Shown here: positions 9,522 to 64,000 of the stretch, in pieces | How the letters are laid out: each line of letters begins with the position of its first letter | Numbering within the stretch: the stretch's first letter is position 1 | NCBI RefSeq assembly: GCF_003334385.1 | Contig: NZ_QOWN01000017.1 | From: Escherichia coli | GTDB taxonomy: Bacteria; Pseudomonadota; Gammaproteobacteria; Enterobacterales; Enterobacteriaceae | Length of the DNA: 64,000 nt | Reading direction: 5' to 3' (one strand) | Translations under genes and position numbers: made by a program | The notes under the pieces: generated by a model | What the model was told of the DNA's origin: nothing | The model's input: the letters and a program-made list of their open reading frames with translations, nothing else | Database searches by the model: none

Positions 9522-10453
9522 AAATTTCCCCTGAATTATTACAAATTTCCCCGGAAGTGCAGGACGCTTTAAAAAACAAAAAACCGGTTGTGGCGCTGGA
9601 ATCGACCATTATTTCTCACGGGATGCCGTTCCCACAAAATGCCCAGACCGCAATTGAAGTTGAAGAAACTATTCGTAAACAGGGCGCTGTACCTGCCACG
9701 ATCGCCATTATTGGCGGCGTGATGAAAGTGGGGTTAAGCAAAGAAGAAATTGAATTACTGGGTCGTGAAGGGCATAACGTGACCAAAGTTAGTCGTCGCG
9801 ATTTACCTTTTGTTGTTGCCGCCGGAAAAAATGGCGCAACCACTGTGGCTTCAACGATGATTATTGCGGCGCTTGCCGGAATTAAAGTATTTGCCACCGG
9901 GGGAATTGGTGGTGTGCATCGCGGGGCGGAACATACCTTCGATATTTCTGCCGATTTGCAAGAACTGGCAAATACTAATGTCACCGTTGTTTGTGCCGGG
10001 GCGAAATCTATTCTCGATTTAGGATTAACCACTGAGTATTTAGAAACCTTCGGTGTGCCGTTAATTGGCTATCAGACTAAAGCGCTGCCTGCGTTTTTCT
10101 GCCGCACCAGCCCGTTTGACGTCAGCATTCGTCTCGACAGCGCCAGCGAAATTGCCCGTGCAATGGCGGTGAAATGGCAAAGCGGTCTGAACGGTGGCCT
10201 CGTGGTAGCGAACCCGATCCCGGAACAGTTTGCTATGCCGGAACACACTATCAATGCGGCGATCGATCAGGCGGTAGCTGAAGCTGAAGCTGAAGCTCAG
10301 GGAGTCATTGGTAAAGAAAGTACGCCATTCCTGCTGGCGCGCGTTGCTGAACTGACCGGCGGTGACAGCCTGAAATCCAACATCCAGCTGGTGTTCAACA
10401 ACGCCATTCTGGCGAGCGAAATTGCCAAAGAATATCAGCGTCTCGCGGGTTAA
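9509..10453 (+). CDS. psuG: Pseudouridine-5'-phosphate glycosidase
   Basis: 314-aa ORF; overlaps psuK by 13 nt; contains (GCTGAA)3 repeat encoding AEAEAEAQ. Confidence 0.9.
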   Translation: MSELKISPELLQISPEVQDALKNKKPVVALESTIISHGMPFPQNAQTAIEVEETIRKQGAVPATIAIIGGVMKVGLSKEEIELLGREGHNVTKVSRRDLPFVVAAGKNGATTVASTMIIAALAGIKVFATGGIGGVHRGAEHTFDISADLQELANTNVTVVCAGAKSILDLGLTTEYLETFGVPLIGYQTKALPAFFCRTSPFDVSIRLDSASEIARAMAVKWQSGLNGGLVVANPIPEQFAMPEHTINAAIDQAVAEAEAEAQGVIGKESTPFLLARVAELTGGDSLKSNIQLVFNNAILASEIAKEYQRLAG

Positions 10454-12695: not shown

Positions 12696-13637
12696 ATGGA
12701 AAAGAGAAAAATTATTCTGGATTGTGAGCCGGGTCATGATGATGCTATTGCTATAATGATGGCGGCGAAACATCCGGCAATAGATTTATTAGGCATCACT
12801 ATTGTAGCGGGTAATCAGACGCTTGATAAAACATTAATTAATGGCCTGAATGTTTGCCAGAAACTGGAGATTAATGTTCCGGTTTATGCGGGGATGCCGC
12901 AGCCCATTATGCGTCAACAAATCGTTGCCGATAATATTCACGGTGAAACCGGACTGGATGGCCCGGTATTCGAGCCGCTGACCCGCCAGGCAGAAAGCAC
13001 TCATGCGGTGAAATATATCATTGATACCCTGATGGCAAGCGATGGCGATATCACTCTGGTGCCGGTTGGTCCGCTTTCAAATATCGCGGTGGCAATGCGT
13101 ATGCAACCCGCGATCCTGCCCAAAATCCGTGAAATTGTGCTAATGGGCGGCGCTTACGGTACAGGCAACTTCACGCCATCTGCCGAGTTCAACATCTTTG
13201 CCGACCCGGAAGCCGCACGCGTAGTGTTCACCTCCGGCGTTCCATTAGTGATGATGGGCCTCGATCTCACCAACCAGACCGTTTGCACCCCGGACGTGAT
13301 TGCTCGGATGGAAAGGGCAGGCGGCCCCGCCGGAGAGCTGTTCAGCGACATCATGAACTTCACTCTCAAAACGCAGTTCGAAAACTACGGCCTTGCTGGC
13401 GGCCCGGTGCACGACGCCACCTGCATCGGTTATCTGATTAACCCTGATGGCATTAAAACCCAGGAGATGTACGTCGAAGTGGACGTCAACAGTGGCCCTT
13501 GCTATGGGCGTACCGTCTGCGACGAGCTGGGCGTTCTTGGCAAGCCCGCCAATACCAAAGTCGGCATCACTATTGATACAGACTGGTTCTGGGGATTAGT
13601 CGAAGAGTGCGTGCGCGGCTACATCAAAACCCATTAA
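12696..13637 (+). CDS. rihB: Pyrimidine-specific ribonucleoside hydrolase RihB
   Basis: 313-aa ORF; IU-nucleoside hydrolase N-terminal DCEPGHDDA motif. Confidence 0.93.
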
Positions 13638-19349: not shown

Positions 19350-20819
19350 ATGGTTTCCGAAACTAAAACCACAGAAGCGCCGGGCTTACGCCGTGAATTA
19401 AAGGCGCGTCACCTGACGATGATTGCCATTGGCGGTTCCATCGGTACAGGTCTTTTTGTTGCCTCTGGCGCAACGATTTCTCAGGCAGGTCCGGGCGGGG
19501 CATTGCTCTCGTATATGCTGATTGGCCTGATGGTTTACTTCCTGATGACCAGTCTCGGTGAACTGGCTGCATATATGCCGGTTTCCGGTTCGTTTGCCAC
19601 TTACGGTCAGAACTATGTTGAAGAAGGCTTTGGCTTCGCGCTGGGCTGGAACTACTGGTACAACTGGGCGGTGACTATCGCCGTTGACCTGGTTGCAGCT
19701 CAGCTGGTCATGAGCTGGTGGTTCCCGGATACACCGGGCTGGATCTGGAGTGCGTTGTTCCTCGGCGTTATCTTCCTGCTGAACTACATCTCAGTTCGTG
19801 GCTTTGGTGAAGCGGAATACTGGTTCTCACTGATCAAAGTCACGACAGTTATTGTCTTTATCATCGTTGGCGTGCTGATGATTATCGGTATCTTCAAAGG
19901 CGCGCAGCCTGCGGGCTGGAGCAACTGGACAATCGGCGAAGCGCCGTTTGCTGGTGGTTTTGCGGCGATGATCGGCGTAGCTATGATTGTCGGCTTCTCT
20001 TTCCAGGGAACCGAGCTGATCGGTATTGCTGCAGGCGAGTCCGAAGATCCGGCGAAAAACATTCCACGCGCGGTACGTCAGGTGTTCTGGCGAATCCTGT
20101 TGTTCTATGTGTTCGCGATCCTGATTATCAGCCTGATTATTCCGTACACCGATCCGAGCCTGCTGCGTAACGATGTTAAAGACATCAGCGTTAGTCCGTT
20201 CACCCTGGTGTTCCAGCACGCGGGTCTGCTCTCTGCGGCGGCGGTGATGAACGCAGTTATTCTGACGGCGGTGCTGTCAGCGGGTAACTCCGGTATGTAT
20301 GCGTCTACTCGTATGCTGTACACCCTGGCGTGTGACGGTAAAGCGCCGCGCATTTTCGCTAAACTGTCGCGTGGTGGCGTGCCGCGTAATGCGCTGTATG
20401 CGACGACGGTGATTGCCGGTCTGTGCTTCCTGACCTCCATGTTTGGCAACCAGACGGTATACCTGTGGCTGCTGAACACCTCCGGGATGACGGGTTTTAT
20501 CGCCTGGCTGGGGATTGCCATTAGCCACTATCGCTTCCGTCGCGGTTACGTATTGCAGGGACACGACATTAACGATCTGCCGTACCGTTCAGGTTTCTTC
20601 CCACTGGGGCCGATCTTCGCATTCATTCTGTGTCTGATTATCACTTTGGGCCAGAACTACGAAGCGTTCCTGAAAGATACTATTGACTGGGGCGGCGTAG
20701 CGGCAACGTATATTGGTATCCCGCTGTTCCTGATTATTTGGTTCGGCTACAAGCTGATTAAAGGAACTCACTTCGTACGCTACAGCGAAATGAAGTTCCC
20801 GCAGAACGATAAGAAATAA
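19350..20819 (+). CDS. lysP: Lysine-specific permease LysP (APC family)
   Basis: 489-aa ORF, 12-TM amino-acid permease. Confidence 0.95.
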   Translation: MVSETKTTEAPGLRRELKARHLTMIAIGGSIGTGLFVASGATISQAGPGGALLSYMLIGLMVYFLMTSLGELAAYMPVSGSFATYGQNYVEEGFGFALGWNYWYNWAVTIAVDLVAAQLVMSWWFPDTPGWIWSALFLGVIFLLNYISVRGFGEAEYWFSLIKVTTVIVFIIVGVLMIIGIFKGAQPAGWSNWTIGEAPFAGGFAAMIGVAMIVGFSFQGTELIGIAAGESEDPAKNIPRAVRQVFWRILLFYVFAILIISLIIPYTDPSLLRNDVKDISVSPFTLVFQHAGLLSAAAVMNAVILTAVLSAGNSGMYASTRMLYTLACDGKAPRIFAKLSRGGVPRNALYATTVIAGLCFLTSMFGNQTVYLWLLNTSGMTGFIAWLGIAISHYRFRRGYVLQGHDINDLPYRSGFFPLGPIFAFILCLIITLGQNYEAFLKDTIDWGGVAATYIGIPLFLIIWFGYKLIKGTHFVRYSEMKFPQNDKK

Positions 20820-20866: not shown

Positions 20867-20916
20867 AATTCCATTTCCCTGACAAATCATGCGGATATAA
20901 AATTTAACATTTGGAT

Positions 20917-20946
20917 TGATAATTGTTATCGTTTGCATTATCGTTA
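20917..20946 (+). promoter_or_regulatory. Fur box in cirA promoter
   Basis: TGATAATTGTTATCGTTTGCATTATCG contains overlapping GATAAT/ATTATC hexamers typical of Fur operators. Confidence 0.8.
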
Positions 20947-21112
20947 CACCGCAATCAAAAAAGGCTGACAAATCAGAGGCTGTTCCGGCTTTCTGGGATG
21001 ATCACCTGCATAAAAAATAAGTCCACCGCGATGCTGCCGTACGCAAGGGGACGTGAAGAAGATGTGAGCGATAACCCATTTTATTTTCGTAGTTACCTCA
21101 TGGAGATATGGA

Positions 21113-23105
21113 ATGTTTAGGTTGAACCCTTTCGTACGGGTCGGGCTGTGTTTGTCCGCTATTTCTTGTGCATGGCCTGTGTTAGCGGTCGATGATGATG
21201 GCGAAACGATGGTTGTCACTGCATCTTCCGTGGAACAAAATCTTAAAGATGCACCTGCCAGTATCAGCGTCATTACCCAGGAAGACCTGCAGCGAAAACC
21301 GGTACAGAATCTGAAGGATGTCCTCAAAGAAGTGCCTGGCGTACAACTGACGAACGAAGGGGATAACCGTAAGGGCGTTAGTATTCGTGGTCTGGACAGC
21401 AGCTATACCCTGATTCTCGTCGACGGTAAACGCGTGAACTCCCGCAATGCCGTCTTCCGCCACAATGATTTCGATCTGAACTGGATCCCGGTCGATTCCA
21501 TCGAACGTATTGAAGTGGTCCGTGGCCCGATGTCGTCGCTGTACGGTTCCGATGCGCTCGGCGGTGTAGTGAATATCATCACCAAAAAAATCGGTCAGAA
21601 ATGGTCGGGTACCGTTACCGTCGATACCACCATTCAGGAACATCGCGATCGCGGTGACACCTATAACGGTCAGTTCTTTACCAGTGGACCATTAATTGAT
21701 GGTGTGCTGGGAATGAAAGCTTACGGCAGCCTGGCAAAACGTGAAAAGGATGACCCGCAAAACTCAACGACCACCGATACCGGAGAAACGCCGCGTATTG
21801 AAGGATTCTCCAGCCGCGACGGCAATGTCGAATTTGCCTGGACACCGAATCAAAATCACGATTTTACTGCCGGATACGGTTTCGACCGTCAGGATCGTGA
21901 TTCCGACTCGCTGGACAAAAACCGCCTGGAACGCCAGAACTACTCCGTCAGCCATAATGGGCGTTGGGATTACGGCACCAGCGAACTGAAATACTACGGT
22001 GAGAAAGTCGAGAACAAAAACCCTGGCAACAGCAGCCCGATAACTTCCGAAAGCAATACGGTCGACGGCAAATACACGTTGCCGCTGACGGCGATTAATC
22101 AGTTTCTCACGGTTGGCGGTGAATGGCGTCACGACAAACTTAGCGATGCGGTGAACCTGACCGGGGGAACCAGCTCCAAAACGTCTGCCAGCCAGTACGC
22201 GCTGTTTGTGGAAGATGAATGGCGGATCTTCGAGCCGCTGGCGCTGACGACCGGCGTGCGTATGGACGATCACGAAACCTACGGTGAACACTGGAGTCCG
22301 CGTGCCTACCTGGTTTTATAACGCCACCGACACCGTAACGGTGAAAGGGGGCTGGGCGACGGCATTTAAAGCACCTTCTCTGTTGCAACTTAGCCCTGAC
22401 TGGACGAGCAATTCCTGCCGTGGCGCATGTAAGATTGTGGGTAGCCCGGATCTGAAACCAGAAACCAGCGAAAGTTGGGAGCTGGGGCTTTACTACATGG
22501 GTGAAGAAGGCTGGCTGGAAGGGGTTGAATCCAGCGTTACCGTTTTCCGTAACGATGTGAAAGATCGTATCAGCATCAGCCGTACGTCTGACGTCAACGC
22601 TGCACCGGGCTACCAAAACTTTGTTGGTTTTGAGACGGGCGCTAACGGACGGCGCATACCGGTATTTAGCTACTACAACGTTAACAAAGCTCGTATTCAG
22701 GGCGTGGAAACCGAACTGAAAATTCCGTTCAACGATGAATGGAAACTGTCGATCAACTACACCTACAACGATGGTCGTGATGTCAGCAACGGCGAAAACA
22801 AACCGCTATCCGATCTGCCGTTCCATACTGCTAACGGTACGCTGGACTGGAAACCGCTGGCGCTGGAAGACTGGTCATTCTATGTTTCTGGGCACTATAC
22901 CGGGCAGAAACGCGCCGACAGCGCGACGGCTAAAACACCGGGCGGTTATACCATCTGGAATACCGGCGCGGCCTGGCAGGTGACTAAAGACGTCAAACTG
23001 CGCGCAGGCGTGCTGAACCTTGGCGACAAGGATCTCAGTCGTGACGACTACAGCTATAACGAAGACGGACGTCGTTACTTTATGGCAGTGGATTATCGCT
23101 TCTGA
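21113..23105 (+). pseudogene. cirA: cirA (catecholate siderophore / colicin I receptor) interrupted by +1 frameshift in a T-run
   Basis: Two track ORFs (21113..22321 and 22284..23105) in different frames together cover full-length CirA; span is 1993 nt (1992 + 1); ctggTTTTataac at 22311..22321 creates in-frame TAA. Confidence 0.8.
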
Positions 23106-23136: not shown

Positions 23137-24006
<870 letters not shown>

Positions 24007-31140: not shown

Positions 31141-31189
31141 TGTGAATGTGGTCCGCATTCGGTCATAAACGCACATAACATCATGATCT

Positions 31190-31378
31190 GTGTGGTTTTG
31201 TAGGCCGGATAAGGCGTTCACGCCGCATCCGGCAACAGGAGCCAAATGCCGGATGCAACGCTGGCGCGTTTTATCCGGCCTACAATAAGCTCAACATACT
31301 GATTTGTATGGTTTTGTAGGCCGGATAAGGCGTTCAAGCCGCATCCGGCGACAGGAACCAAATGCCGGATGCGTCTCT
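31190..31378. repeat. BIME cluster (multiple REP units)
   Basis: Two near-identical ~90-bp units each containing tgtaggccggataaggcgttca(c/a)gccgcatccggc, between convergent mglC and preA. Confidence 0.9.
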
Positions 31379-52286: not shown

Positions 52287-52979
52287 TTAAATGCCGAGTG
52301 GGAAAATATCATGGCCTTGTTCTTGCCAACTGGTGAGTTGCTGCTGTTGGGCGGAGGTTCGATTTTCACCGCACCACACCAGCAATGTACGGCCTTCGAA
52401 TAGTTCAGGGCGTAGTTGATTGAGCGAGTGGGCGAGGACATCAATGCGCCATCCTTGTTGACTGGCAATCCAGCCCTCCAGCCACAGACGGGTGGTATCC
52501 TGAATATTCCAGCCAACCACCAGCGCATCTTTACCCTGTTTTTTACGTGCCGAAGCCAGACAAATGGCGATGTAGTTGATCAGTACGCCGTCGAGGATCG
52601 CCAGCAGCGCCTGGAGAGTCGGTTGTTGGCACTGAAGCCGTCGGCGCAGAGGAATAAACAGATGTGTGGTGAGTGTCTGGGCGGGGTAATCCTGACCGCG
52701 CTCTTTGATCCACGTTCGCAGGCTATGTAGATTGCCGCTTTGCAGGTAAGTCAGTAATGTTTCTTGCTGATCGCGCCAGCCGTTCTGCACATCAACATTT
52801 TCATTACTGAGCAGCATTTTAACTTTGCTGACCTGCACGCCGTTGTCGATCCAGCGTTTGATCTCGCGGATCCGGTCAATATCGGCATCGTTGAACAGCC
52901 GATGACCGCCGTCTGTCCGTTGCGGTTTCAGCAATCCGTAACGCCTCTGCCACGCGCGTAACGTGACAGGGATTAAGGG
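52287..52979 (-). pseudogene. mlrA: mlrA (yehV) MerR-family curli regulator, 5'-truncated by prophage insertion
   Basis: Translation matches MlrA from ...PVTLRAWQRRYGLLKPQRTDGG to the C-terminus; the first ~17 codons are replaced by unrelated sequence with an in-frame stop at 53004..53006 and no start codon. Confidence 0.8.
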
Positions 52980-53008
52980 TAAACTAATTGATTTTGCAAG
53001 TTTTTATT

Positions 53009-54295
53009 TTACCCAGCTTTCTTATGGGGCATACATGGGACACTTTCAGATAGTCTTTTGTTAAGGAGTTCTATCTGTTCGTGATTGTTGTCTTTCATCC
53101 ATGCTCCGTAAACATTGAATACCATTTGTGCGTTTGTGTGGCCCATCTGGCTTGCGATAAAACTAGGATTAGCTCCAGCGGCAAGTGACCAGCATGCATA
53201 AGTATGCCTGGATTGGTACGATTTTCTGTGTCTCAGACCTGCGCGTTTTAAGATACTTGTCCATGACTCCCTGATGGAGTCAACCTTATAGTGCGGTCCG
53301 GAAAACTGCCGCTGTTTTATTACCTGAGGACTAAAAACAAAAGTGCATTTATGCACAGTACTTCTCCCATATTCCCTCTGCTTTACCTCTACAGAATGTT
53401 GCTTTCCAAGCATGGTCATTTCCGCCTGACTTTTAAGAGCATCAATAGCTGGTTGAACCAGATGAATTGTCCTTCCGGTGCCAGCATCGGTTTTTGGTGG
53501 AGTGAATTCGCCAAGTTTTGTATAATTCCTACGGATGGTTATAGTCCTTGCTTTAAGATCTATATCTTCCCATGCCAGCGATACCAGCTCCCCGTGACGA
53601 ATACCCGTGTATACAGCGAGAATCCACAGGTTTTTTGTTTGTTGATGACGGCAAGCCTCAATAAAACGAATAAATTCGTCACGGGTGAGAGGATCTGGTT
53701 TTACCTTGGACTTTTTTAAGGGGGCCAGACCGTTAAATGGGTTTCCTGAGGTATAACCATTATCTGTTGCAAATTGAAACATTCCAGCTATGGTTGTCAT
53801 ATAGTAGTTTACTGTGACCACTGAGCGCCCTTTTATGGAAGAAATCTTTCCATTAGAAAGCTTTTGGTAACCGGTCAACAAATCTCTCCTTGCGAAAAGT
53901 AAATCCTCTTTTGTTATGGATGAAACCAGTTTTTTCTCACCCAACATAGGCAACATGTTTTTAATTACTGACTGGTAACGATTAAGTGCATTCGCACAAA
54001 TCTCAATTTTCTTAAGGTCCAACCATTTTTCCGAAAGTGCCTTAACGGTTATCTCTCTTTTTCCCAGACCAAAGTGTTTCAGGTTAGGGGAATTAGGGAA
54101 CTGTGTAGCGTAGTCGAAACTCCCCATTCTGATTGCAAAACAAACGGAAGTGCGAAGTTCACCTGCGATCTTCCGGTTTTTGGCGGTGTCAGGAACACCG
54201 AGGTTTTCTCTGACACGTTTGCCATTATAGTGAAACCATATACGGAGTGATCCTCCATGGTTTTCAACGCCTGTCGGGTATGATACGTTACTCAT
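53009..54295 (-). CDS. int: Phage integrase (tyrosine recombinase)
   Basis: 428-aa ORF; GGGAGG SD; C-terminal catalytic region with conserved R...HxxR...Y pattern (RHTYACW, final Y in NVYGAWM). Confidence 0.85.
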   Translation of the reverse strand: MSNVSYPTGVENHGGSLRIWFHYNGKRVRENLGVPDTAKNRKIAGELRTSVCFAIRMGSFDYATQFPNSPNLKHFGLGKREITVKALSEKWLDLKKIEICANALNRYQSVIKNMLPMLGEKKLVSSITKEDLLFARRDLLTGYQKLSNGKISSIKGRSVVTVNYYMTTIAGMFQFATDNGYTSGNPFNGLAPLKKSKVKPDPLTRDEFIRFIEACRHQQTKNLWILAVYTGIRHGELVSLAWEDIDLKARTITIRRNYTKLGEFTPPKTDAGTGRTIHLVQPAIDALKSQAEMTMLGKQHSVEVKQREYGRSTVHKCTFVFSPQVIKQRQFSGPHYKVDSIRESWTSILKRAGLRHRKSYQSRHTYACWSLAAGANPSFIASQMGHTNAQMVFNVYGAWMKDNNHEQIELLNKRLSESVPCMPHKKAG

Positions 54296-54328
54296 TAAAC
54301 CTCCCAGACGTCCAGGAGCATTAACAGG

Positions 54329-54583
54329 TTAACCGGAACTTGCATTTTTGGCACCTGGTTGTTTCTGGTTTTCGATCCATCGCATAATTTCTTCGATGTT
54401 GTACAGGCATTCACTGTAATGCCCAGGATCACCTTCTACAGCGTAATGGCGGTATTCTTTTCCCTGCATCCATGACTTTCTTCTGGCCCGCTCGATGGTG
54501 CCGGGCTTTAGCCCTGTTGATGCAATAAGGACTCTCTCCGTACACCATTTGCTGGGGGTTATCTGATAGATGATTGTCTGCAT
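54329..54583 (-). CDS. Putative excisionase / small DNA-binding protein
   Basis: 84-aa basic ORF immediately upstream of int, same strand; resembles excisionase-like phage proteins (from memory). Confidence 0.5.
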   Translation of the reverse strand: MQTIIYQITPSKWCTERVLIASTGLKPGTIERARRKSWMQGKEYRHYAVEGDPGHYSECLYNIEEIMRWIENQKQPGAKNASSG

Positions 54584-54739
54584 GCCAGCCTCATAAAACT
54601 TTCATCCACGGCAGTGGCACCACATTTCAAACATTCGCTTCACAACTTCACGACAGTAGAAGCCATCAACATCTCGCGTCAGGTCATAGTGATTGCCGTA
54701 ACGCTGGTGGACCCATCGTTCAAATGCTTTATTCATTCT

Positions 54740-54982
54740 TTACTTCCTTTTTATGGCTCGTAATTTTTTCAGGTGCTTTTCCTGCTCAGTGTCCGCGAGA
54801 ATTTTGCGGTACTCCTGGTGGTCAATATGTTCGAACAGGCAGTTTAACTCACCAATGCGTACCCGCCCGGATCGTCCGTCCACCCGTCGAAAGAACACTG
54901 AGTGCTCAGTGATGCGAGTAATCACCACGGGGTATCCGGCTCTGTCCGTGTATATCTGACCGCGTTGAATCAAAGCGAACAT
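54740..54982 (-). CDS. Hypothetical phage protein (80 aa)
   Basis: Track ORF 54740..55018; ATG at 54982 preceded by GGGGA. Confidence 0.45.
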   Translation of the reverse strand: MFALIQRGQIYTDRAGYPVVITRITEHSVFFRRVDGRSGRVRIGELNCLFEHIDHQEYRKILADTEQEKHLKKLRAIKRK

Positions 54983-55066
54983 GTGGTTATCCCCATCGAC
55001 AAATCGAGAACACAACAAACGCTGCTGCGAATACCACCCCCAGAGTTACGATTGCATCAGGCCAGC

Positions 55067-56011
55067 TCATTGATTCACCTCCTGCCTGTCGTCCGGCATT
55101 CGCTCACTACAGCTTATCCAACCATCCGGAGTTACCGGAACTTGTGGAATGGCTGTCTGCTCTCGAACGTCATTAGGCGCTATAGGTTCTGCTGCCAACT
55201 GACTGGCATATTTGTTAATGGTAACGATAAGCTCTTGCTCAGCCTCATCCAGACAATCACCGATACCTCGCCTGTCACCGTCAAAATCATCGAAATCGGC
55301 ACGAATCCTGGCAACCTTCAGGATTGCGGACAACACCTCACTAGGAATTGCCGGATAGTTGGTTGACGTTTCCGCGATTTCCCGAAAATTATTGGTTGAC
55401 GAATTCTTGTTTTCCCGAAAGTTTCCGGACTGAAGCATGGCGGCGCGGCAGGCGTTCCATATTTCGGCAGCAATATCGCGCTCGCTATCGGTTAATTTGT
55501 ACGTTGAAACATAGCCAGAGAGCATTTCTACGTTTTCCGGAGTTGCTTCTTCAGGCACTACCGGTGCTGGCTCACGTATTACAGGCTCGCCCATGCGTGA
55601 TTCTCCCTGCGCCTCTTTCACCATGTGGTCATTGATTTGCTCCAGTCGCCGAACGTGCTCATCAGCTTCAAGCGCTCGCCGTTTCCAGATGGACAGGTCT
55701 TCACGAGCGCCCTGATATGCGTCACCGTATTCGCCGTTAAATACTGGCGCTGGCGGGGCGATGCGTCCAAGCAACTTATTTACCTCTTTCGCCATCGCGT
55801 CATATTTATCTAAATAGCGATTAGCTTCTAAGCAGACTCGGTGCATCTGATCTGAGTTAACTCGTTTAACTGGATCTGCTTCCAATGATGCCAGTGCAAT
55901 TCGTGCCAGTTCTTCCGCTTCTTCTGCTGGCAGTACAACGTTGCTACCCGGTCCGTATGTTTCGCGCCACTGCTTGATTGTCAGCAGTCGCCCTTTGGTA
56001 ATAGTGATCAT
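55067..56011 (-). CDS. Hypothetical phage protein (314 aa), shares RIALASLEA(D/E)PV motif with the 56428..56877 product
   Basis: Strong SD AAGAGGA; paralogous N-terminal motif; C-terminal GWISCSERMPDD resembles DUF551-type phage proteins (from memory). Confidence 0.6.
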   Translation of the reverse strand: MITITKGRLLTIKQWRETYGPGSNVVLPAEEAEELARIALASLEADPVKRVNSDQMHRVCLEANRYLDKYDAMAKEVNKLLGRIAPPAPVFNGEYGDAYQGAREDLSIWKRRALEADEHVRRLEQINDHMVKEAQGESRMGEPVIREPAPVVPEEATPENVEMLSGYVSTYKLTDSERDIAAEIWNACRAAMLQSGNFRENKNSSTNNFREIAETSTNYPAIPSEVLSAILKVARIRADFDDFDGDRRGIGDCLDEAEQELIVTINKYASQLAAEPIAPNDVREQTAIPQVPVTPDGWISCSERMPDDRQEVNQ

Positions 56012-56014
56012 GGG

Positions 56015-56203
56015 TTATCCTCTTAGCGCCACAACGCGCACTTCTGGGTCAAAGGATGATGAATTTTCATCTGTAATATCAGCAACATGACCTACAAAGT
56101 CGTTATACTCACACTCTGATTGTTCATAGCCCTGCCAGACCACGACAGCCTCAGGAGGCATTTTTCTGAGCTTGCTGATTAATTGCCTCACCGTCAGTGA
56201 CAT
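56015..56203 (-). CDS. Hypothetical small phage protein (62 aa)
   Basis: Perfect SD AAGGAG in an AAGGAGAGTGATATG junction; acidic C-terminus. Confidence 0.55.
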   Translation of the reverse strand: MSLTVRQLISKLRKMPPEAVVVWQGYEQSECEYNDFVGHVADITDENSSSFDPEVRVVALRG

Positions 56204-56204
56204 A

Positions 56205-56351
56205 TCACTCTCCTTTACCCGCTGCTTTCGCCTGCTCTTTAGCGAGTCGCTCCGCTTCTCTGAAATCCCAATCTACTCGATGTGCTATATCAATTGCAGA
56301 ACGCACGGTCCGTTCAATTAGCGTATCCAGGTTATCAATTGTCATTGCCAT
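56205..56351 (-). CDS. Possible small phage protein (48 aa)
   Basis: ORF below track threshold; helical charged sequence; stop TGA lies in the coupling junction to the next gene; no clear SD. Confidence 0.3.
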   Translation of the reverse strand: MAMTIDNLDTLIERTVRSAIDIAHRVDWDFREAERLAKEQAKAAGKGE

Positions 56352-56427
56352 ATCTGGATTGCGAGATAAAATCTCCGCCCTCTGAATCTGCTAGTTGTTG
56401 CAGGTTTCAAGTAATGAGTTAGCCATA

Positions 56428-56877
56428 TCACTCTCCTTTGATGCCAATGTTTACAGCCTGGCAAGCCTCTTTGAGTACCCAGTCAACAGCGTCTTTCCAT
56501 GCTCCGGTTTCGACTGGCGGATTTTCACGCTTAACCTGTTCATAGAAACGCACTGCTTTAATCAATCCTTCTGATGTCAGTGGCACAGGCGGGGCAGTGA
56601 ATAACGCCTGAATTTCATAGTTCGGTCTGTCGTTGCAATCCTCTTTTGTCGGTACATATTTCCAGTCACCAACCCACGAATCCCCCTGAGAGTCCGTAAC
56701 ACCTTTTTTCACGTAGCGATATCGCCACGCGACTGGCTCTGCTTCCAACGATGCCAGTGCGATACGAAACACATTGGCAAGCAGGCTGCTTGAAGATTGG
56801 TTATCGTGCGCCGGGTCGCTCAGGAAACCAGTGATGAATGATTTAATTTCCGCGTTTTCTCTGGTAATAGTGGTCAT
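56428..56877 (-). CDS. Hypothetical phage protein (149 aa), paralogous motif with 55067..56011
   Basis: SD GAGGA; start overlaps upstream stop (ATGA). Confidence 0.6.
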   Translation of the reverse strand: MTTITRENAEIKSFITGFLSDPAHDNQSSSSLLANVFRIALASLEAEPVAWRYRYVKKGVTDSQGDSWVGDWKYVPTKEDCNDRPNYEIQALFTAPPVPLTSEGLIKAVRFYEQVKRENPPVETGAWKDAVDWVLKEACQAVNIGIKGE

Positions 56878-57083
56878 TTATTAATCCTCAAAACTTTATG
56901 CCCGGGCGCAAAAGCACGTGTTTTGTCTTTGCTTATTCGCCAGCCATCCTTGCGCGCCTCTTTTGCACAGCCAGCCCATGACGTACCGATATACTCACCG
57001 AAGTCTGGCGTTTGATATTTACCATTTGTACACTGGCAACAATCACAGTAGAGATGCATGGTGTAACTTGCGGAAATAGCCAT
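56874..57083 (-). CDS. Small Cys-rich phage protein (69 aa; CDCCQC...C, possible zinc ribbon)
   Basis: Start at internal ATG of track ORF 56874..57191 with perfect SD (AAGGAGCCTGATATG); upstream gene stop sits in the SD spacer. Confidence 0.55.
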   Translation of the reverse strand: MAISASYTMHLYCDCCQCTNGKYQTPDFGEYIGTSWAGCAKEARKDGWRISKDKTRAFAPGHKVLRINK

Positions 57084-57084
57084 A

Positions 57085-57276
57085 TCAGGCTCCTTTAGTG
57101 CGTAAGTGGTTTTTCCAGCGGTTTTGCGCCGCGCTGCGCTTATCTTTGATTCCCTCTCTGGCAATTCCAGAATATAAGTACAACACCACACGGCGATTGC
57201 TAACTCTCAACCACTGGCTGGGATAGCAACGTCTGTATACACGGGAGATAAGCATCTTTGCTTTACGGTTTTTCAT
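57085..57276 (-). CDS. Small basic phage protein (63 aa), tandem paralogue A
   Basis: N-terminus MKNRKAKMLISR...WLRVSNRRV conserved with the adjacent upstream ORF at protein level; ATGA-coupled. Confidence 0.5.
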   Translation of the reverse strand: MKNRKAKMLISRVYRRCYPSQWLRVSNRRVVLYLYSGIAREGIKDKRSAAQNRWKNHLRTKGA

Positions 57277-57455
57277 CTTACTGCGTACCCTTTCTTCCGC
57301 CTGTTCTGTGACGCGCTAGGCTTTTTGCAACAACTGTGCCCCATCACCCCGCAACACCCCGTCAACCTCACTCGTCTGTTACTAATCCTCAACCATCGCC
57401 AGACCCCAACACCGTTTCTGCGAGCTAACAGAATTTTTGCCTTACGGTTTTTCAT
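57273..57455 (-). CDS. Small basic phage protein (60 aa), tandem paralogue B
   Basis: MKNRKAKILLAR...WLRISNRRV; SD AGGAGA; start overlaps upstream stop (ATGA). Confidence 0.5.
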   Translation of the reverse strand: MKNRKAKILLARRNGVGVWRWLRISNRRVRLTGCCGVMGHSCCKKPSASQNRRKKGYAVR

Positions 57456-57628
57456 CGTTTTGTTCTCCTGCGTTTCTTTGCTGCTCGTCGTGCCGCTGCA
57501 ATACCGGTATGGCGGCGCTTTGGTGCCGGGATGATGTTGTCAGCCATCAGGACATGTGGCTTTGCAATTAGCGCAGAAGCCCAAAAACGAGTCGGGTACG
57601 GTAACAAGCCGATACATGCCACACGCAT
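57452..57628 (-). CDS. Small basic phage protein (58 aa)
   Basis: Below track threshold; SD AGGAGG 6 nt before ATG; start overlaps the Ea22-like stop (TAATG) and stop overlaps next start (ATGA). Confidence 0.5.
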   Translation of the reverse strand: MRVACIGLLPYPTRFWASALIAKPHVLMADNIIPAPKRRHTGIAAARRAAKKRRRTKR

Positions 57629-58443
57629 TACTCACCTCCTTTGATGCGAATGCCTGCGGCGCGGATTGCAGCGATGACTTCAGAAACTTTGTATGCCATT
57701 ACCGTTTGGTAATCATCGTGAAAATCTGTTCGATGAAGCATGCTGCTACGTTCCGGGAGCGATATTTCCCGAGCATCCAGTTCCTTAACGCGTTCCTCCA
57801 GTTCGTAGACCCTGCATTGTTCTCTATCATCAATCAGATATAACCCAAGACATTCGCTTTCTACCCAACCGCCAAAATCATGATCGTAACGCTCACATGA
57901 AAACTCACCGTCACCGTCCTTTGTTGGAATGGTGTAACTATCTAATGTGCCACCATATGTCGGCACATTTCCCAATGTTGGATGCTCAATCCACATGAAA
58001 AATGCACGTCCGGTTATTGGGCAAATATCTGGCCGCCATTGGTTACGAACAGCCTTGGTTTCGGATAATTCTTCAGCGTGTTGTTTTACTTCCTCAAGCT
58101 CAACTCTCAGCTTCCCTACCGTTAGCGCAATATCCTCGTTCTCCTGATCGCGGCTTTTGATGTATTGCAGGTTTCTTTCCCGTTCATCCAGCAGTGCCAG
58201 CACGGTAGCCGGGTTAGCCTCTGCTATGAATTCAGCGTTTGCATAAGCCTGAGCATCTGTTTCAACCAGGCAGTTAACGTGACATTCTGCAATTACGCCA
58301 CCGGGTTCTCCTTTCCATTTTTGACAAACAAAAACTCCTGTTAAATTGCCGTGTTGGTTAACAGATGTATGCCCTACGATGTAGCTTCCTTTAGTTGCTT
58401 TCTCTGCCTTTTCACGCAGTGCCTGATAGTCAATCTTGCTCAC
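57628..58443 (-). CDS. Ea22-like phage protein (271 aa)
   Basis: GTG start with SD AAGGAGG; contains LLDERERNLQYIKSRDQENEDIALTVGKLRVELEE and C-terminal GIRIKGGE, which I recall as characteristic of lambda Ea22. Confidence 0.65.
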   Translation of the reverse strand: MSKIDYQALREKAEKATKGSYIVGHTSVNQHGNLTGVFVCQKWKGEPGGVIAECHVNCLVETDAQAYANAEFIAEANPATVLALLDERERNLQYIKSRDQENEDIALTVGKLRVELEEVKQHAEELSETKAVRNQWRPDICPITGRAFFMWIEHPTLGNVPTYGGTLDSYTIPTKDGDGEFSCERYDHDFGGWVESECLGLYLIDDREQCRVYELEERVKELDAREISLPERSSMLHRTDFHDDYQTVMAYKVSEVIAAIRAAGIRIKGGE

Positions 58444-58744
58444 TGGCAGCCTCCTTTGCCGGGATTTCTAACTTTTGAGTGGTTGTATCAAATTCAAACA
58501 ACTTAACCACGTCATCAAACAGGACATAATCACCATCAGGATTTTCAGTCATATCTGCGCCACAATCCTGACCGCACGAGTCGCAACCATCCATATCAAG
58601 CTCGTATCGCTTCAGGTTTGCGATATTTGATAAATTCAGCGCCAGTACAGCCAGGTCATAAACCTCTTCGGCAGTGACATCGCTGTTCAGTCCCATTTCA
58701 TGGCGATATATGATTTTTTCTACTCGTTGTTTTGTGATCGTCAT
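58430..58744 (-). CDS. Hypothetical phage protein (about 104 aa)
   Basis: Track ORF 58430..58768; ATG at 58744 (MTITKQR...); alternative start at 58696 possible; acidic, Cys-containing. Confidence 0.45.
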   Translation of the reverse strand: MTITKQRVEKIIYRHEMGLNSDVTAEEVYDLAVLALNLSNIANLKRYELDMDGCDSCGQDCGADMTENPDGDYVLFDDVVKLFEFDTTTQKLEIPAKEAASEQD

Positions 58745-59015
58745 TTTTCTCTTCACTCCGATATACAAGGATTACTACACCCCCTCTGCTGATTGCGCGA
58801 GCTGGATCCCCTGGTTCCATGCCGTCAATTCCGAAGGCTTCGGAAAACGCATTCATTGCCTTCTGGCGTTCATCCTGCTTACGGCGTTTATTCCATTTTT
58901 TCAGGAACAACAGCGACAGCCACCGTCCGCTGCAGAACACGATGTAAAAATAACCAAGGAGCGCCAGGCCGACATTCAGGGCCGTTTCTATGGTTAGTTG
59001 TGAGTCAGTTGCCAT
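58698..59015 (-). CDS. Small membrane protein (105 aa; one N-terminal TM helix, then basic stretch)
   Basis: Hydrophobic segment LNVGLALLGYFYIVFCSGRWLSLLFL followed by KKWNKRRKQDERQK; 3' end overlaps next gene so true stop/start uncertain. Confidence 0.4.
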   Translation of the reverse strand: MATDSQLTIETALNVGLALLGYFYIVFCSGRWLSLLFLKKWNKRRKQDERQKAMNAFSEAFGIDGMEPGDPARAISRGGVVILVYRSEEKNDDHKTTSRKNHISP

Positions 59016-59253
59016 TTCTTACCTGTTTAAGTAACTGGTTGAACATAACACTTAGGGGATTGCTGTATCCAAACGGCAGATTGTTTACGCAGTACAGAAT
59101 CATTTTGTTTTTTTCTCCAGTTCGTACTATTAACCCATTCCACAATAACCGTGATAATTCATTACTGATAGAAGTTGCGCTTCTTCCAAGTGCGAGGGAT
59201 ATATCTTCTCTACTGCAATCTGGATTTTCCTGGATATACTCGATAACGGTCAT
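59005..59253 (-). CDS. Putative winged-helix DNA-binding protein (82 aa)
   Basis: Track ORF 59005..59295; ATG at 59253 (MTVIEYIQENPDCSREDISLALGRSATSISNELSRLLWNGLIVRTG...) resembles a wHTH. Confidence 0.45.
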   Translation of the reverse strand: MTVIEYIQENPDCSREDISLALGRSATSISNELSRLLWNGLIVRTGEKNKMILYCVNNLPFGYSNPLSVMFNQLLKQVRNGN

Positions 59254-59263
59254 GTGGTCCCTT

Positions 59264-59845
59264 TTACTTAATATCTGTTTCGGATTGCATGCCATGAGTA
59301 TTCATTTCGTTAATAATTTCATCCAGAAGGATTTCAAGCCCTTCTCGACCCATATCTGAAAGAATGAAACCTTTATCAGGGGAAGTAGTGAGCATTTTCT
59401 GATAAAGAAACAGCGCTCTTCCCATTCCTTCAGTTTCGCCGTATTTTTGAATTAAATTCCATTCAATATACTGTTGTAAGGCAAATCGAATGGGGCCGGG
59501 ATATATCGTCATAAACCCATACATCCCGTTATATACCACGGCGTGTTCAGTTGTTCCGTGTTCATTCAGGATATCAATTGTGCCGTTCTTGTCTTCTTCT
59601 TCGTTGATGAATGTCGTCACATACAACCATCGCCACTGAGCAACCTTCATCTCAACCGGAAGTTTACCCAGTAATCCTGCTTCGTCGGCTTGCGCCAGAC
59701 ACTGAAGGATACGTAAACCTCGCACATTAGGAGTATCGAATTCTCCGGCATCCAGACGACGTATGGCGTCGTGATAATCAATCGTCATACTGCCAGTTCG
59801 TATACCATTGGCTGTTGCTTCAGCCTGGAATTCATCGTATTGCAT
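59264..59845 (-). CDS. Hypothetical phage protein (193 aa)
   Basis: SD GAGGA; no recognisable motifs. Confidence 0.55.
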   Translation of the reverse strand: MQYDEFQAEATANGIRTGSMTIDYHDAIRRLDAGEFDTPNVRGLRILQCLAQADEAGLLGKLPVEMKVAQWRWLYVTTFINEEEDKNGTIDILNEHGTTEHAVVYNGMYGFMTIYPGPIRFALQQYIEWNLIQKYGETEGMGRALFLYQKMLTTSPDKGFILSDMGREGLEILLDEIINEMNTHGMQSETDIK

Positions 59846-59850
59846 GATAT

Positions 59851-60039
59851 TTATTCCTCATCTTCATCTTCATCTGCTGGTGCAATAACGTCATATCCTG
59901 CCTTTTCTGCAATAAACAGGAATGTTGAAAGAGTTCCTACAAGTTCATCGTCATGAACATGGCGAATGAATATTACTTTCCCGTTTTTGATGGTCAGCAA
60001 TATTCTGGTTTGTTCGTGTTCTGCTGTTTTCTGATGCAT
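59851..60039 (-). CDS. Small phage protein with acidic tail (62 aa; ...APADEDEDEE)
   Basis: SD GGGAGA; stop 6 nt before next start. Confidence 0.5.
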   Translation of the reverse strand: MHQKTAEHEQTRILLTIKNGKVIFIRHVHDDELVGTLSTFLFIAEKAGYDVIAPADEDEDEE

Positions 60040-60233
60040 TATTATCTCCCGTATGCTTTACGCAGAAATAAGCAGGCAATATGCATGTAATTTTCACCGT
60101 ATTGTGCAATAAGGCAGGCGGTCTTGTGTGATGCCATATTCTTTATAAAAGTCACAATAAAGCCTCCTGTGGATTAAGGTTGTAACAATCCCCGGCGATA
60201 AAACCGCAATAAACGTTCAGGGCATATTTGTTG

Positions 60234-60599
60234 TTATTGCGCTAATTCTTTTTCGGCAGCAGCTTTTGTATACTCACATGCAAAACTCAGAATTTCGCTG
60301 CCGAGTGTTTTCGTTTCGTGATTACTGGACATATGTAATACCTGTGTTGCATGCAATAAATGATAAACATTTACCGCAAATGAATCAGGCTCCAGACAAA
60401 TGCCTTCGTAATTATCTTGCTGTGAGGTTGTTTCTGTCATTGCTCCTGAAGTGCATGCGAGCCTGTTTTTGACAATTCTCTTTTCTCTAATCACTATATC
60501 GGCAACATCTATTGCCTTTACAACCTCCGGGAGAAGTTCCGGGTTTGTATAATCAAAGTCATCAACATGGAGAACAGTTATGTTTTCGAACTTTTTCAT
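60234..60599 (-). CDS. Hypothetical phage protein (121 aa); C-terminal half paralogous to the N-terminal domain of the 60728..61276 product
   Basis: SD GAGGAAG; alignment LEPDSFAVNVYHLL...KTLGSEILSFACEYTKAAA versus LELDSFALNIANLL...KELGIEVMEFIHEYALSAA. Confidence 0.55.
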   Translation of the reverse strand: MKKFENITVLHVDDFDYTNPELLPEVVKAIDVADIVIREKRIVKNRLACTSGAMTETTSQQDNYEGICLEPDSFAVNVYHLLHATQVLHMSSNHETKTLGSEILSFACEYTKAAAEKELAQ

Positions 60600-60727
60600 G
60601 GCTTCCTCAGCTGACTTATATGTTCTGCTATATAGCGAGTCTCAGAAGTGTTTTCATATTGAGACTGTTTCCACAATGATTGATAAAAATGTTCGCATGT
60701 ACCTTGAAGGGCGAAGCGGCGATTATG

Positions 60728-61276
60728 TCACCATTGGTATTGGTTCTTCCGCAGAAGAGCTTCGCGAGATAAGGGGCAAACTTGTTGAGATGCGTCATGG
60801 TGTTGCTGCTCCTCACTTTTTGGTTGCTCCGGAGGAGTAACCTCACCAGTTAACAGGCACATCGGATCGCAGCCAAGAATATTTGCCAGTGGGATAAGCA
60901 TACTGATAGTTGGTTCATACTCTCCGCTCTCCCACTGGATGATAATTTCTTCATCGAGATCGAGCAGCCTGGCGAGTTCGGCGGTTGTTAAGCCGCAGGC
61001 TTCGCGTTGGGTGCGAAGGTTAACCAGCCAGCTTTCAGGGAAGGATTGTTTTTGCTGTGCAGGAGAAGCAGCAGATAGAGCATATTCATGGATAAATTCC
61101 ATTACCTCAATGCCCAGTTCCTTTGAGCGAGCACAATCCAGAAGATGGAATGTGCGTACAGCACTTAGCAAATTTGCAATATTTAATGCAAAGGAATCAA
61201 GTTCTAAGCCCTTAAGCGTAACACAGCCGCAGTTGATAAAATTAGTTGTTTCTGGAGTTGCTTTTAGTGTCTTCAT
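60728..61276 (-). CDS. Two-domain protein: N-terminal unknown domain plus C-terminal XRE-type HTH (182 aa)
   Basis: ATG at 61276 (track ORF extends to 61306); HTH segment GLTTAELARLLDLDEEIIIQWESGEYEPT; first gene downstream of a sigma70-like promoter next to cI. Confidence 0.55.
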   Translation of the reverse strand: MKTLKATPETTNFINCGCVTLKGLELDSFALNIANLLSAVRTFHLLDCARSKELGIEVMEFIHEYALSAASPAQQKQSFPESWLVNLRTQREACGLTTAELARLLDLDEEIIIQWESGEYEPTISMLIPLANILGCDPMCLLTGEVTPPEQPKSEEQQHHDASQQVCPLSREALLRKNQYQW

Positions 61277-61329
61277 ATATCCGCCAACAATTTTAAATTG
61301 AATCAAATCAAGTTATAATTGATGGTGCG

Positions 61330-61358
61330 ATATTATGTTTTGGGAAACAGGCTGTCAA
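61330..61358 (-). promoter_or_regulatory. Sigma70-type promoter (pL-like) reading leftward, away from cI
   Basis: On minus strand: TTGACA (61358..61353), 17-bp spacer, TAATAT (61335..61330); about 45 nt upstream of the 61276 start. Confidence 0.6.
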
Positions 61359-61388
61359 GAAAAAATTGATATCGTATATTTCAGGCAG

Positions 61389-61410
61389 AAAAAAAACGGG
61401 CAAAGCCCGT
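61389..61410 (-). terminator. Rho-independent terminator just downstream of cI
   Basis: Minus strand: ACGGGC-TTT-GCCCGT followed by T8 (plus-strand A8 at 61389..61396). Confidence 0.75.
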
Positions 61411-61422
61411 TAAAATCAAAGA

Positions 61423-62112
61423 CTAACCAAATCTGTTTATGTTGAATGGTACTGATGAGATCACTTTAGACTGGATATAAAGCAGAGCTAACCCCTCTTT
61501 TTCGATGCTCCATGGTTGATAATTGGGGTTATCAGATAACACCATGATTTTGCTTCCAATTTTTTGAAGCCTTTTCACGTAGCATTCTCCATCAAAACAA
61601 AATGCATAAATACCATCGCCATCAAAATAAGTTACTGTCTTATCAAGAAAAAGAAGGTCGCCAGGTGAGATTGTGGGAGCCATACTGTCTCCTCTGGCGT
61701 TACCTATTTCTATATTTTTGAATGCCCGATTTCCAACAAGACGTCGGGCATATTCAGGATCAAGTTCTATTGAGCGCACTACATCTATCAAGTCACCACG
61801 GACATGAGTTCCATCACCGCAACTAAACTCAACATCAAGGACATTAAATACGACGCTATCTGTTCTTGTCTGGTGTTTCTCTTGCGAGGAAAAGGTTGGT
61901 GAGGAGTCTTCACCTAAGAACCAGGATTGTGGATAACCGCTAATCTCTGATAAATGCGCGAGCTTATCACTCCGTGGAAATGTTTTTCCTGTTGTCCAGT
62001 ACTGCACTGATTGCGCACTCACACCTAACTTGCGGGCCAGTTGAGCCTGAGTCCATCCTTTTGCTTTCAGCATCGCGGCTATTCGATTTTCCGTGTTTTT
62101 GACGTTCTTCAT
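61423..62112 (-). CDS. cI: CI-type prophage repressor (N-terminal HTH plus C-terminal S24 LexA-like autopeptidase), 229 aa
   Basis: ATG at 62112 (MKNVKNTENRIAAMLKAKGWTQAQLARKLGVSAQSVQYW); S24 motifs GDSMAPT (Ser) and YVKRL (Lys); divergent from Cro-like gene. Confidence 0.85.
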   Translation of the reverse strand: MKNVKNTENRIAAMLKAKGWTQAQLARKLGVSAQSVQYWTTGKTFPRSDKLAHLSEISGYPQSWFLGEDSSPTFSSQEKHQTRTDSVVFNVLDVEFSCGDGTHVRGDLIDVVRSIELDPEYARRLVGNRAFKNIEIGNARGDSMAPTISPGDLLFLDKTVTYFDGDGIYAFCFDGECYVKRLQKIGSKIMVLSDNPNYQPWSIEKEGLALLYIQSKVISSVPFNINRFG

Positions 62113-62245
62113 GACCAAATCCTGTGGGTTTCTTTACAAGGATAAATCTTTACTTGATTTTAGTGTATTCGATCCTTTTGTAACTTGCATGTTAATTTAA
62201 ACTTGATGTATTCTTGATTTATAAAGTTAATATTGGTGTTTTGTT

Positions 62246-62536
62246 ATGGAAGGAAATGATTACGACAAACTTCGTGCATTAATTGCGCAAAATGCCATAG
62301 CGCGAAATCTTGGTGTGACGCCGCAAGCGGTGAATCAGTGGTTTTCAAAAAGCACAATTCCTGCTCGTTTCGTTTTACGAGTATGTGAAGTAGTTGCATG
62401 GAAGGTTACGCCTCATGGCTTAAGGCCAGATCTTTATCCTCACCCTGAAGATGGAATTCCTAACTTGTTACGCAAAAGCCTAAATCCAAGTTCACCACAC
62501 AGAGCGGATGGAATACACGCAGGAGATAAACAATGA
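62246..62536 (+). CDS. cro: Cro-like HTH regulator (YdaS/DUF1019-like), 96 aa
   Basis: HTH NLGVTPQAVNQW; HGLRPDLYP motif; divergent to cI across a 133-bp AT-rich intergenic region. Confidence 0.7.
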   Translation: MEGNDYDKLRALIAQNAIARNLGVTPQAVNQWFSKSTIPARFVLRVCEVVAWKVTPHGLRPDLYPHPEDGIPNLLRKSLNPSSPHRADGIHAGDKQ

Positions 62537-63240
62537 ACACCGCAATTTTTAACGGCAAAGCATCCATGACCAGCGTTGAGATCGCAGAGCTGGTGGGAAG
62601 CCGACCAGATAGTGTTAAGAGAACTATTGAAACACTGGCTAAAAAGGGAATCATCCAATTTCCACAGACTGTGGAAATTGAGAATAAACAATCACTTGGG
62701 CCTCGCCGATTTTCTAGCGCGTATGTATTCGAAGGTGAACGAGGTAAGCGCGACAGCATCATTGTCGTCGCACAGCTCTGTCCTGAATTCACAGCTCGCC
62801 TGGTAGATCGCTGGCGCGAACTGGAAGAACAGATCCGTAAGCCAATGAGCGAAATCGAAATGGTTGCCGCGATGGCTCTTGAAGCCGTTCGCCAACAGAA
62901 ACGGATCACTCAGGTGGAAGAAAAAGTCAGCCACGTTGCTGAAACAGTCGAGCAAATTAAAAAGGGCACTATTCGTGAGGGCTATGCCGGATATCGCCAA
63001 CTGAAAGCAAAAACCGGTTTGTCAGATGATAAATGCCGCAATCTGGTGAACGCCTATCAAATTCCTACAGACACACATGAGTTCATGACGCCGGACGGAT
63101 TGTTGTCACGTCGCGCAATTGTTGCTGTGGAACCGTTTATGGCTGCTTTTTATCGGGTTATGGAGGAAGCAGAACCGCGAGGGACTCGCTGGTATCACCC
63201 GAAAATGGGGTTATTTCAGGTTATTGGTTGGCAGCGATGA
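62533..63240 (+). CDS. Putative phage regulatory / antirepressor-like protein (235 aa)
   Basis: Start overlaps cro stop (ATGA); N-terminus MTSVEIAELVGSRPDSVKRTIETLAKKG resembles Rha/Bro-N-type DNA-binding N-domains. Confidence 0.5.
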   Translation: MNTAIFNGKASMTSVEIAELVGSRPDSVKRTIETLAKKGIIQFPQTVEIENKQSLGPRRFSSAYVFEGERGKRDSIIVVAQLCPEFTARLVDRWRELEEQIRKPMSEIEMVAAMALEAVRQQKRITQVEEKVSHVAETVEQIKKGTIREGYAGYRQLKAKTGLSDDKCRNLVNAYQIPTDTHEFMTPDGLLSRRAIVAVEPFMAAFYRVMEEAEPRGTRWYHPKMGLFQVIGWQR

Positions 63241-63648
63241 AAAAAAGCCGGGAGTAACCCGGCTCACTCAACATCAATAACGGGGAGCTGTTTCGCATAA
63301 AACGGCTCCGAAACATCCAAGAACAGTTCTAAAGATATCAGCAGCTATATGATCATTTCAAGACCAAATATTGATTCTGCAATTCCGGGACGTTACACTG
63401 CTCAGGCACCTTATAAAGCGGGTGCCGGGGGTCGCAGCCCGGAATTGTCAACGGCGATATATGACGCGCCAGCGTCTTTTTTATCGTCCGCGCTCACGCA
63501 CGCCAGAATTATGGTGGGCTGGGCAGGGGAGCCGAAAGGCTCGCCGGTCTCCGTTGACGCCGGTACTGCGAACCCTGTTCAGTCTGCCACCAGTGAGTTT
63601 CGCAGCTCCGGTGGTGGAAGTTTTCCACAGTCAACGGAGGCTGCCATC

Positions 63649-64000
63649 ATGGCTACGATCCCAACCCTCACTCAACCTGAAATTGCCATCGTTGATGGTC
63701 AGGCTGTTACTTCATCCCTGGCTGTTGCCAACTTCTTCTCCAAACGTCATGACGATGTACTGAAAAAGATCCGCACGCTTGAATGCTCTGCATCATTCAC
63801 TTCCCGCAATTTTTCGGTGAGTGATTACACCGATTGCACAGGCCGCAAACTACCTTGCTATCAAATAACCCGCGACGGCTTTGCGTTTCTTGCTATGGGT
63901 TTCACGGGTAAACGTGCTGCCCAGTTCAAAGAGGCATACATCAATGCCTTTAACCAGATGGAGAAACAGCTTTCAAATCCCTCTGTACTGAGCGACGTTG
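63649..64000 (+). CDS. Rha-family phage regulatory protein, 5' portion (partial, runs off window)
   Basis: SD AACGGAGG; MATIPTLTQPEIAIVDGQAVTSSLAVANFFSKRHDDVLKKIRTL...RDGFAFLAMGFTGKRAAQFKEAYI matches the Rha-family pattern. Confidence 0.7.
   Translation, partial: MATIPTLTQPEIAIVDGQAVTSSLAVANFFSKRHDDVLKKIRTLECSASFTSRNFSVSDYTDCTGRKLPCYQITRDGFAFLAMGFTGKRAAQFKEAYINAFNQMEKQLSNPSVLSDV

Follow-up and report, generated by a model that had tools for sequence, protein, structure and literature searches.

A frameshifted cirA allele shared by a small clade of human-gut Escherichia coli

Results

A single inserted T breaks the cirA reading frame

We found that the cirA gene in a 64,000-nucleotide stretch of Escherichia coli DNA (NZ_QOWN01000017.1, hereafter the window) is disrupted by one additional T, and we conclude with high confidence that the break is a genuine, heritable one-base insertion producing a null allele. 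Judging from the sequences compared, this 4-T allele is fixed in a small phylogroup A clade of human-gut E. coli comprising the window's clone, strain SCU-104 (ST8125) and strains represented in metagenomes. The exact allele had already been flagged in a RefSeq record; what is new here is that it marks a small commensal clade and not a single genome. The features on which the analysis rests are the following (positions in the window, strand).

19350..20819, + strand: lysP, the upstream synteny anchor
20904..20950, + strand: cirA promoter and Fur-operator region, with two overlapping promoter-like sites and a GATAAT...CATTATC iron-box-like sequence (promoter scan)
21113..23105, + strand: cirA pseudogene, whole locus, 1993 nt, 100% identical to the cirA of SCU-104
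21113..22321, + strand: N-terminal frame, encoding signal peptide, plug and the initial portion of the barrel; ATG start, 402 codons and TAA (list of open reading frames)
21242..21568, + strand: plug domain, retained (residues 44-152, Pfam PF07715)
21773..23021, + strand: TonB-dependent receptor beta-barrel domain (wild-type residues 221-636, Pfam PF00593), cut after residue 401/402
22314..22317, + strand: TTTT run with the inserted T (c.1204dupT); TTT in the other genomes inspected
22317..23105, + strand: out-of-frame remainder, equivalent to residues 402-663 of the wild type (C-terminal portion of the barrel, up to ...DYRF)
22319..22321, + strand: premature TAA created by the shift (p.Tyr402Leufs*2)
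23137..23973, - strand: yeiG, the convergent downstream neighbour, with S257C in the window's clone

The frame that opens at 21113 encodes a 402-aa product ending ...SPRAYLVL*, while the 3' part of the gene is read in the +1 frame up to a TGA at 23103..23105. This remainder amounts to 262 codons, out of frame and devoid of a signal peptide of its own. When one T is removed, the locus encodes a 663-aa protein that is identical to MG1655 CirA at every residue by direct comparison, and apart from the T added to the TTT run the gene shows no lesion relative to MG1655. The presence of four rather than three T is a deterministic sequence difference in which no statistical signal is involved. A preliminary description of this DNA had placed a +1 frameshift in the TTTT run at 22314..22317, a TAA at 22319..22321 and a locus length of 1993 nt, and all of these coordinates were reproduced here; the wild-type sequence that it had given, ...AYLVYNATDT, is likewise that of MG1655 CirA, to which the locus returns after removal of one T.

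To assign the gene to a family, we compared its products with NF007478, the NCBIfam equivalog for the catecholate siderophore and colicin I receptor CirA, which has a curated cutoff of 745 bits. The restored 663-aa protein scores 1460 bits and aligns with profile positions 1-663 of 663; the solved structures of the colicin I receptor (2HDF, 2HDI and 9NN6) match it over residues 26-663. Together with the conserved lysP-cirA-yeiG synteny, the NF007478 score bears out the earlier naming of the gene as cirA. The full-length match of the restored protein establishes the ancestry of the gene, not its present function. As it stands, the locus does not encode one polypeptide with a signal peptide, a plug and a complete barrel, given that the frame stops at residue 402. 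The N-terminal 402-aa fragment covers profile positions 1-401 of 663, and the C-terminal fragment reaches 554.8 bits, which is under the cutoff. Since the plug occupies residues 44-152 and the barrel residues 221-636, a stop after residue 402 falls in the middle of the barrel and removes more than half of it along with the C-terminus. The position of this stop within the barrel and the sub-threshold score of the C-terminal fragment lead us to classify the locus as a cirA pseudogene and not as a functional member of the family.

The surroundings of cirA are conserved

The gene order lysP, cirA, yeiG is common to the window, SCU-104, P13-6 and MG1655. Since yeiG is convergent to cirA, no polar effect of the frameshift on it is expected.

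In MG1655, cirA is repressed by Fur and induced in the inflamed gut (PMC3879352). The 293-nt spacer between lysP and cirA in the window equals that of MG1655 save for one SNP, 20948 G>A, so that by this comparison the gene retains, this position excepted, the Fur-controlled promoter of K-12. The substitution is private to the window's clone (it is also found in L009 and L011) and sits 4 nt downstream of the second predicted -10 hexamer. A scan of the region for a Fur box with at most three mismatches to the strict consensus returned no site, the best 19-mer having five mismatches, which we attribute to the degeneracy of the operator. The view that the Fur box is intact is essentially right, as the spacer matches MG1655 at all positions but 20948.

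The allele is rare among complete genomes and is shared with SCU-104

We searched 5,426 complete E. coli genomes, all of which contain cirA, with an 81-nt query centred on the run. An exact match to the 4-T sequence was found in a single genome, that of SCU-104 (NZ_CP053284.1). Besides SCU-104, the full-length cirA matches that we inspected are 1992 nt long, one nucleotide shorter. In SCU-104 the gene (HHJ22_RS16495) carries the PGAP annotation of a "frameshifted" pseudogene. This strain was isolated from the rectal swab of a healthy student and belongs to phylogroup A, ST8125 (PMC11251922).

We considered whether the window might simply be SCU-104 and rejected this identity, as 19 SNPs and a 6-bp repeat indel separate them within 47.7 kb. 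The 5,426 complete genomes contain no exact copy of the window. Because the window is not SCU-104, two different strains carry the same cirA lesion. Their cirA sequences are identical over all 1993 nt, with the same 4-T run, and the two share clade-marker SNPs; they differ in the 6-bp indel, which lies in psuG, and in a rihB nonsense mutation of SCU-104 that is absent from the window.

Independent assemblies place the lesion on a common haplotype

The exact 402-aa product was found in 181 blocks of a public assembly index and on 99 contigs from NCBI (CAM7033819.1), JGI, Logan and ENA, and the 267-aa C-terminal product that gene callers predict from the cirA remainder on 103 contigs. Scanning JGI metagenome contigs with a 36-mer containing the 4-T run gave no matches; the allele was recovered instead through the exact-protein index. 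Among the 24 longest contigs examined for the 402-aa product, 23 belong to one or other of two haplotype groups that are closely related.

A probe built on YeiG S257C picked out two assemblies, NCBI GCA_003334385.1 (contig QOWN01000017.1) and one that Logan produced from run ERR1948963 and lists for 7 samples. Over 20.8 kb and 16.3 kb, respectively, they match the window at 100% identity and carry the four T and every window-private SNP. The probe change also occurs in L010 (GCA_046249065.1), which has C257 in YeiG and an intact cirA. We rejected L010 as a sister or revertant of the window's clone, as it is without the markers 24393 and 29412 (described below) and without the other window-private SNPs.

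Two gut-metagenome contigs from ENA, L006 and L007, carry the 4-T cirA on the haplotype of the window and SCU-104. Comparison with sister strains, proposed in the preliminary description, thus returned the same 4-T allele in SCU-104, L006 and L007. The derived SNPs 24393 and 29412 are present in all four carriers (window, SCU-104, L006 and L007), and the derived SNPs 11204 and 40823 are common to the window and SCU-104, at sites which L006 and L007 do not reach. None of these four SNPs occurs in MG1655 or P13-6. L007 additionally shares the rihB nonsense mutation with SCU-104. The co-segregation of the 4-T allele with four linked SNPs makes it a clade marker. Found in independent data and linked to neighbouring variants, the lesion qualifies as a heritable frameshift pseudogene and not as an assembly error.

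Technical, recoding and laboratory explanations

The preliminary description had cautioned that a homopolymer indel may be an artefact of sequencing or assembly, in which case the extra T would be a miscall and the real cirA intact. A 1-nt homopolymer indel present in just one of 5,426 complete genomes invites that suspicion, but data of at least three kinds, each generated independently, contain the same allele (complete and draft genomes, Logan assemblies of reads and ENA metagenome assemblies), and its four T are linked to the four clade-marker SNPs. A run of three to four bases is, moreover, not an error-prone homopolymer. Over 48 kb compared with P13-6, the window shows no single-base indel other than the cirA T, so its assembly has no tendency towards homopolymer errors. 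Given the independent assemblies and the linked SNPs, we consider an artefact very unlikely. An origin of the mutation in laboratory culture of one isolate would fit the ease with which receptor-loss mutants are selected in vitro; the allele nevertheless turns up in assemblies of stool metagenomes, and its carriers include strains separated by about 4 SNPs per 10 kb, so that we judge such an origin extremely improbable.

CirA might also stay functional in spite of a real insertion if ribosomes shifted by +1 at GUU UUA UAA, whether through leakiness or as a programmed event, or if transcription slipped there. The exact wild-type sequence would be regained if the P-site tRNA moved by +1 from GUU to UUU; a stop follows two codons later, and the two frames share an overlap of about 25 codons. 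The shift site is, however, present in only one of 5,426 genomes and so is no conserved recoding signal, and by inspection CUG GUU UUA UAA C contains neither a prfB-like CUU-UGA-C motif nor an upstream Shine-Dalgarno-like stimulator. Four T are also far too few for appreciable slippage by RNA polymerase. Rescue by either route is accordingly highly improbable. With an unconserved site and no CUU-UGA-C or Shine-Dalgarno-like element, the locus does not qualify as a programmed +1 frameshift of the prfB type. We likewise rejected a phase-variable contingency locus: the tract has only three or four T, four T are found in one of 5,426 genomes and the allele is stable across the clade.

A divergent carrier and the question of a second origin

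One further contig, L008 (ENA ERZ27246550), has four T amid flanking sequence of another haplotype, which shows 109 differences over 17 kb. If the 4-T allele were a hot-spot mutation, arising more than once and in separate backgrounds, and not the marker of a single clade, divergent flanks of this kind and the absence of markers 24393 and 29412, both seen in L008, would be expected. Yet the cirA allele of L008 (L008 10001-11993) has no counterpart among the 5,426 complete genomes, and within it ST540-like and K-12-like variants alternate within tens of bases, once only 27 bp apart, the pattern expected of a strain-mixture consensus or a recombinant. L008 also carries 23533C, which is otherwise private to L006. 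Finally, the confinement of 23 of the 24 longest contigs examined to two closely related haplotype groups speaks against a hot spot. We therefore regard independent recurrence as unlikely, and a mosaic, either a strain-mixture consensus or a recombinant, as the more likely account of L008.

Other sequence variation in the window

Several variants elsewhere in the window were recorded alongside cirA. At 10276-10293 in psuG, the unit AGCTGA is present three times in the window and twice in SCU-104, P13-6 and MG1655; the extra hexanucleotide adds an in-frame Ala-Glu to pseudouridine-5'-phosphate glycosidase. Two distinct rihB changes occur in this one cirA-null clade: D11E at 12728 in the window's clone, within the N-terminal DxDxxxDD motif of RihB, and the nonsense mutation at 13461 in the sister subclade (SCU-104 and L007). 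Five of the six window-private coding SNPs (11081, 12728, 13888, 23205, 38148 and 44763) are non-synonymous, the changes being psuT S179R, rihB D11E, nupX P51L, yeiG S257C and dld D313N, and SCU-104 has several private protein variants of its own. Such private variants look like recent mutation not yet purged by selection.

A lambdoid prophage occupies 52287-64000, integrated at the 5' end of mlrA (yehV), with its integrase at 53009-54295 on the - strand; the N-terminus of mlrA is altered. The prophage is common to SCU-104 up to 58444 and divergent beyond. In O157:H7, prophage insertion at the mlrA site affects curli regulation. The mdtQ gene (39272) is intact in the window, whereas in MG1655 it is a pseudogene through a 1-nt deletion at that place. 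Between mglC and preA, two 80-nt copies at 31177-31372 are 91% alike and are probably intergenic repeats of the REP type.

Discussion

Predicted consequences of the truncation

Translation of the 4-T allele would end after residue 402, leaving an exported product in which signal peptide and plug are followed by less than half of the barrel domain. Assembly of outer-membrane barrels requires the C-terminal strands and a terminal Phe motif. Having neither, the N-terminal product would be expected to fail to insert into the outer membrane, and the downstream fragment, which has no signal peptide, would remain cytoplasmic if it is made at all. From this reasoning we infer that carriers should have no functional CirA receptor at the outer membrane.

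By analogy with characterized strains, carriers are predicted to resist colicins Ia/Ib and other CirA-dependent bacteriocins. Deletion of cirA makes MG1655 resistant to ColIb and can be complemented (PMC3879352), and Mcc1229 requires CirA (PMC8853679). On the same grounds, dihydroxybenzoylserine, catechols and cefiderocol are all predicted to be taken up less well; in NDM-producing E. coli ST167, truncation of CirA accompanies high cefiderocol MICs (PMC12457464). The genes for Fiu and FepA lie outside the window.

Comparison with known cirA losses

Loss of cirA at the level of a lineage is already well documented, and the 4-T case, while real, is an ordinary one. The closest parallel is the emergent turkey lineage of Salmonella Reading, in which a cirA frameshift is clade-defining (PMC7160679). 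As in the E. coli clade, one inserted base in cirA has gone to fixation in a natural clade, in that case an expanding one, and the authors propose that it protects against colicin Ib producers in the gut (PMC7160679). The two differ in species, in site (the Salmonella lesion is a C insertion at position 680) and in setting, an outbreak lineage there and human commensals here. Frameshift loss of CirA has also been described in clinical Enterobacterales, namely E. coli ST167 (PMC12457464) and K. pneumoniae (PMC12054181), with the same predicted effect on the uptake of siderophore-cephalosporins. The ST167 lesion is another allele, an S90Y frameshift (PMC12457464), and these ST167 and K. pneumoniae strains are carbapenemase producers, whereas the window gives no sign of drug resistance. 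In K. pneumoniae, 1.27% of genomes have an incomplete CirA (PMC12054181).

Public E. coli data contain further cirA fragments, a 276-aa C-terminal one on 624 contigs and a 424-aa N-terminal one on 47 contigs. Both probably derive from different lesions, on cirA alleles other than the 4-T allele. Their numbers suggest that disruption of cirA is frequent and recurrent in E. coli.

Persistence of the allele and its significance

Why the allele persists can be answered only tentatively. Selection by CirA-targeting bacteriocins in the gut is a real possibility, though one that we rate at somewhat below even, and by analogy with Salmonella Reading such bacteriocin pressure would be the most plausible selective cause. 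The alternative is a near-neutral loss, tolerated thanks to other catecholate receptors. A joint reading, in which CirA-targeting bacteriocins (colicins Ia/Ib and CirA-dependent microcins) fixed the loss in a long-lived commensal lineage of the human gut and the lesion also recurred independently in L008, seems to us quite unlikely. Were it true, the TTT run would be a small convergent hot spot and the commensals a reservoir pre-adapted to lower cefiderocol uptake.

Taken together, the analysis supports the annotation of this cirA as a pseudogene, a correct call that should not be "repaired". A CirA-null allele circulates in E. coli of healthy carriage with no link to cefiderocol exposure, and such a background would be ready for a carbapenemase to give raised cefiderocol MICs.
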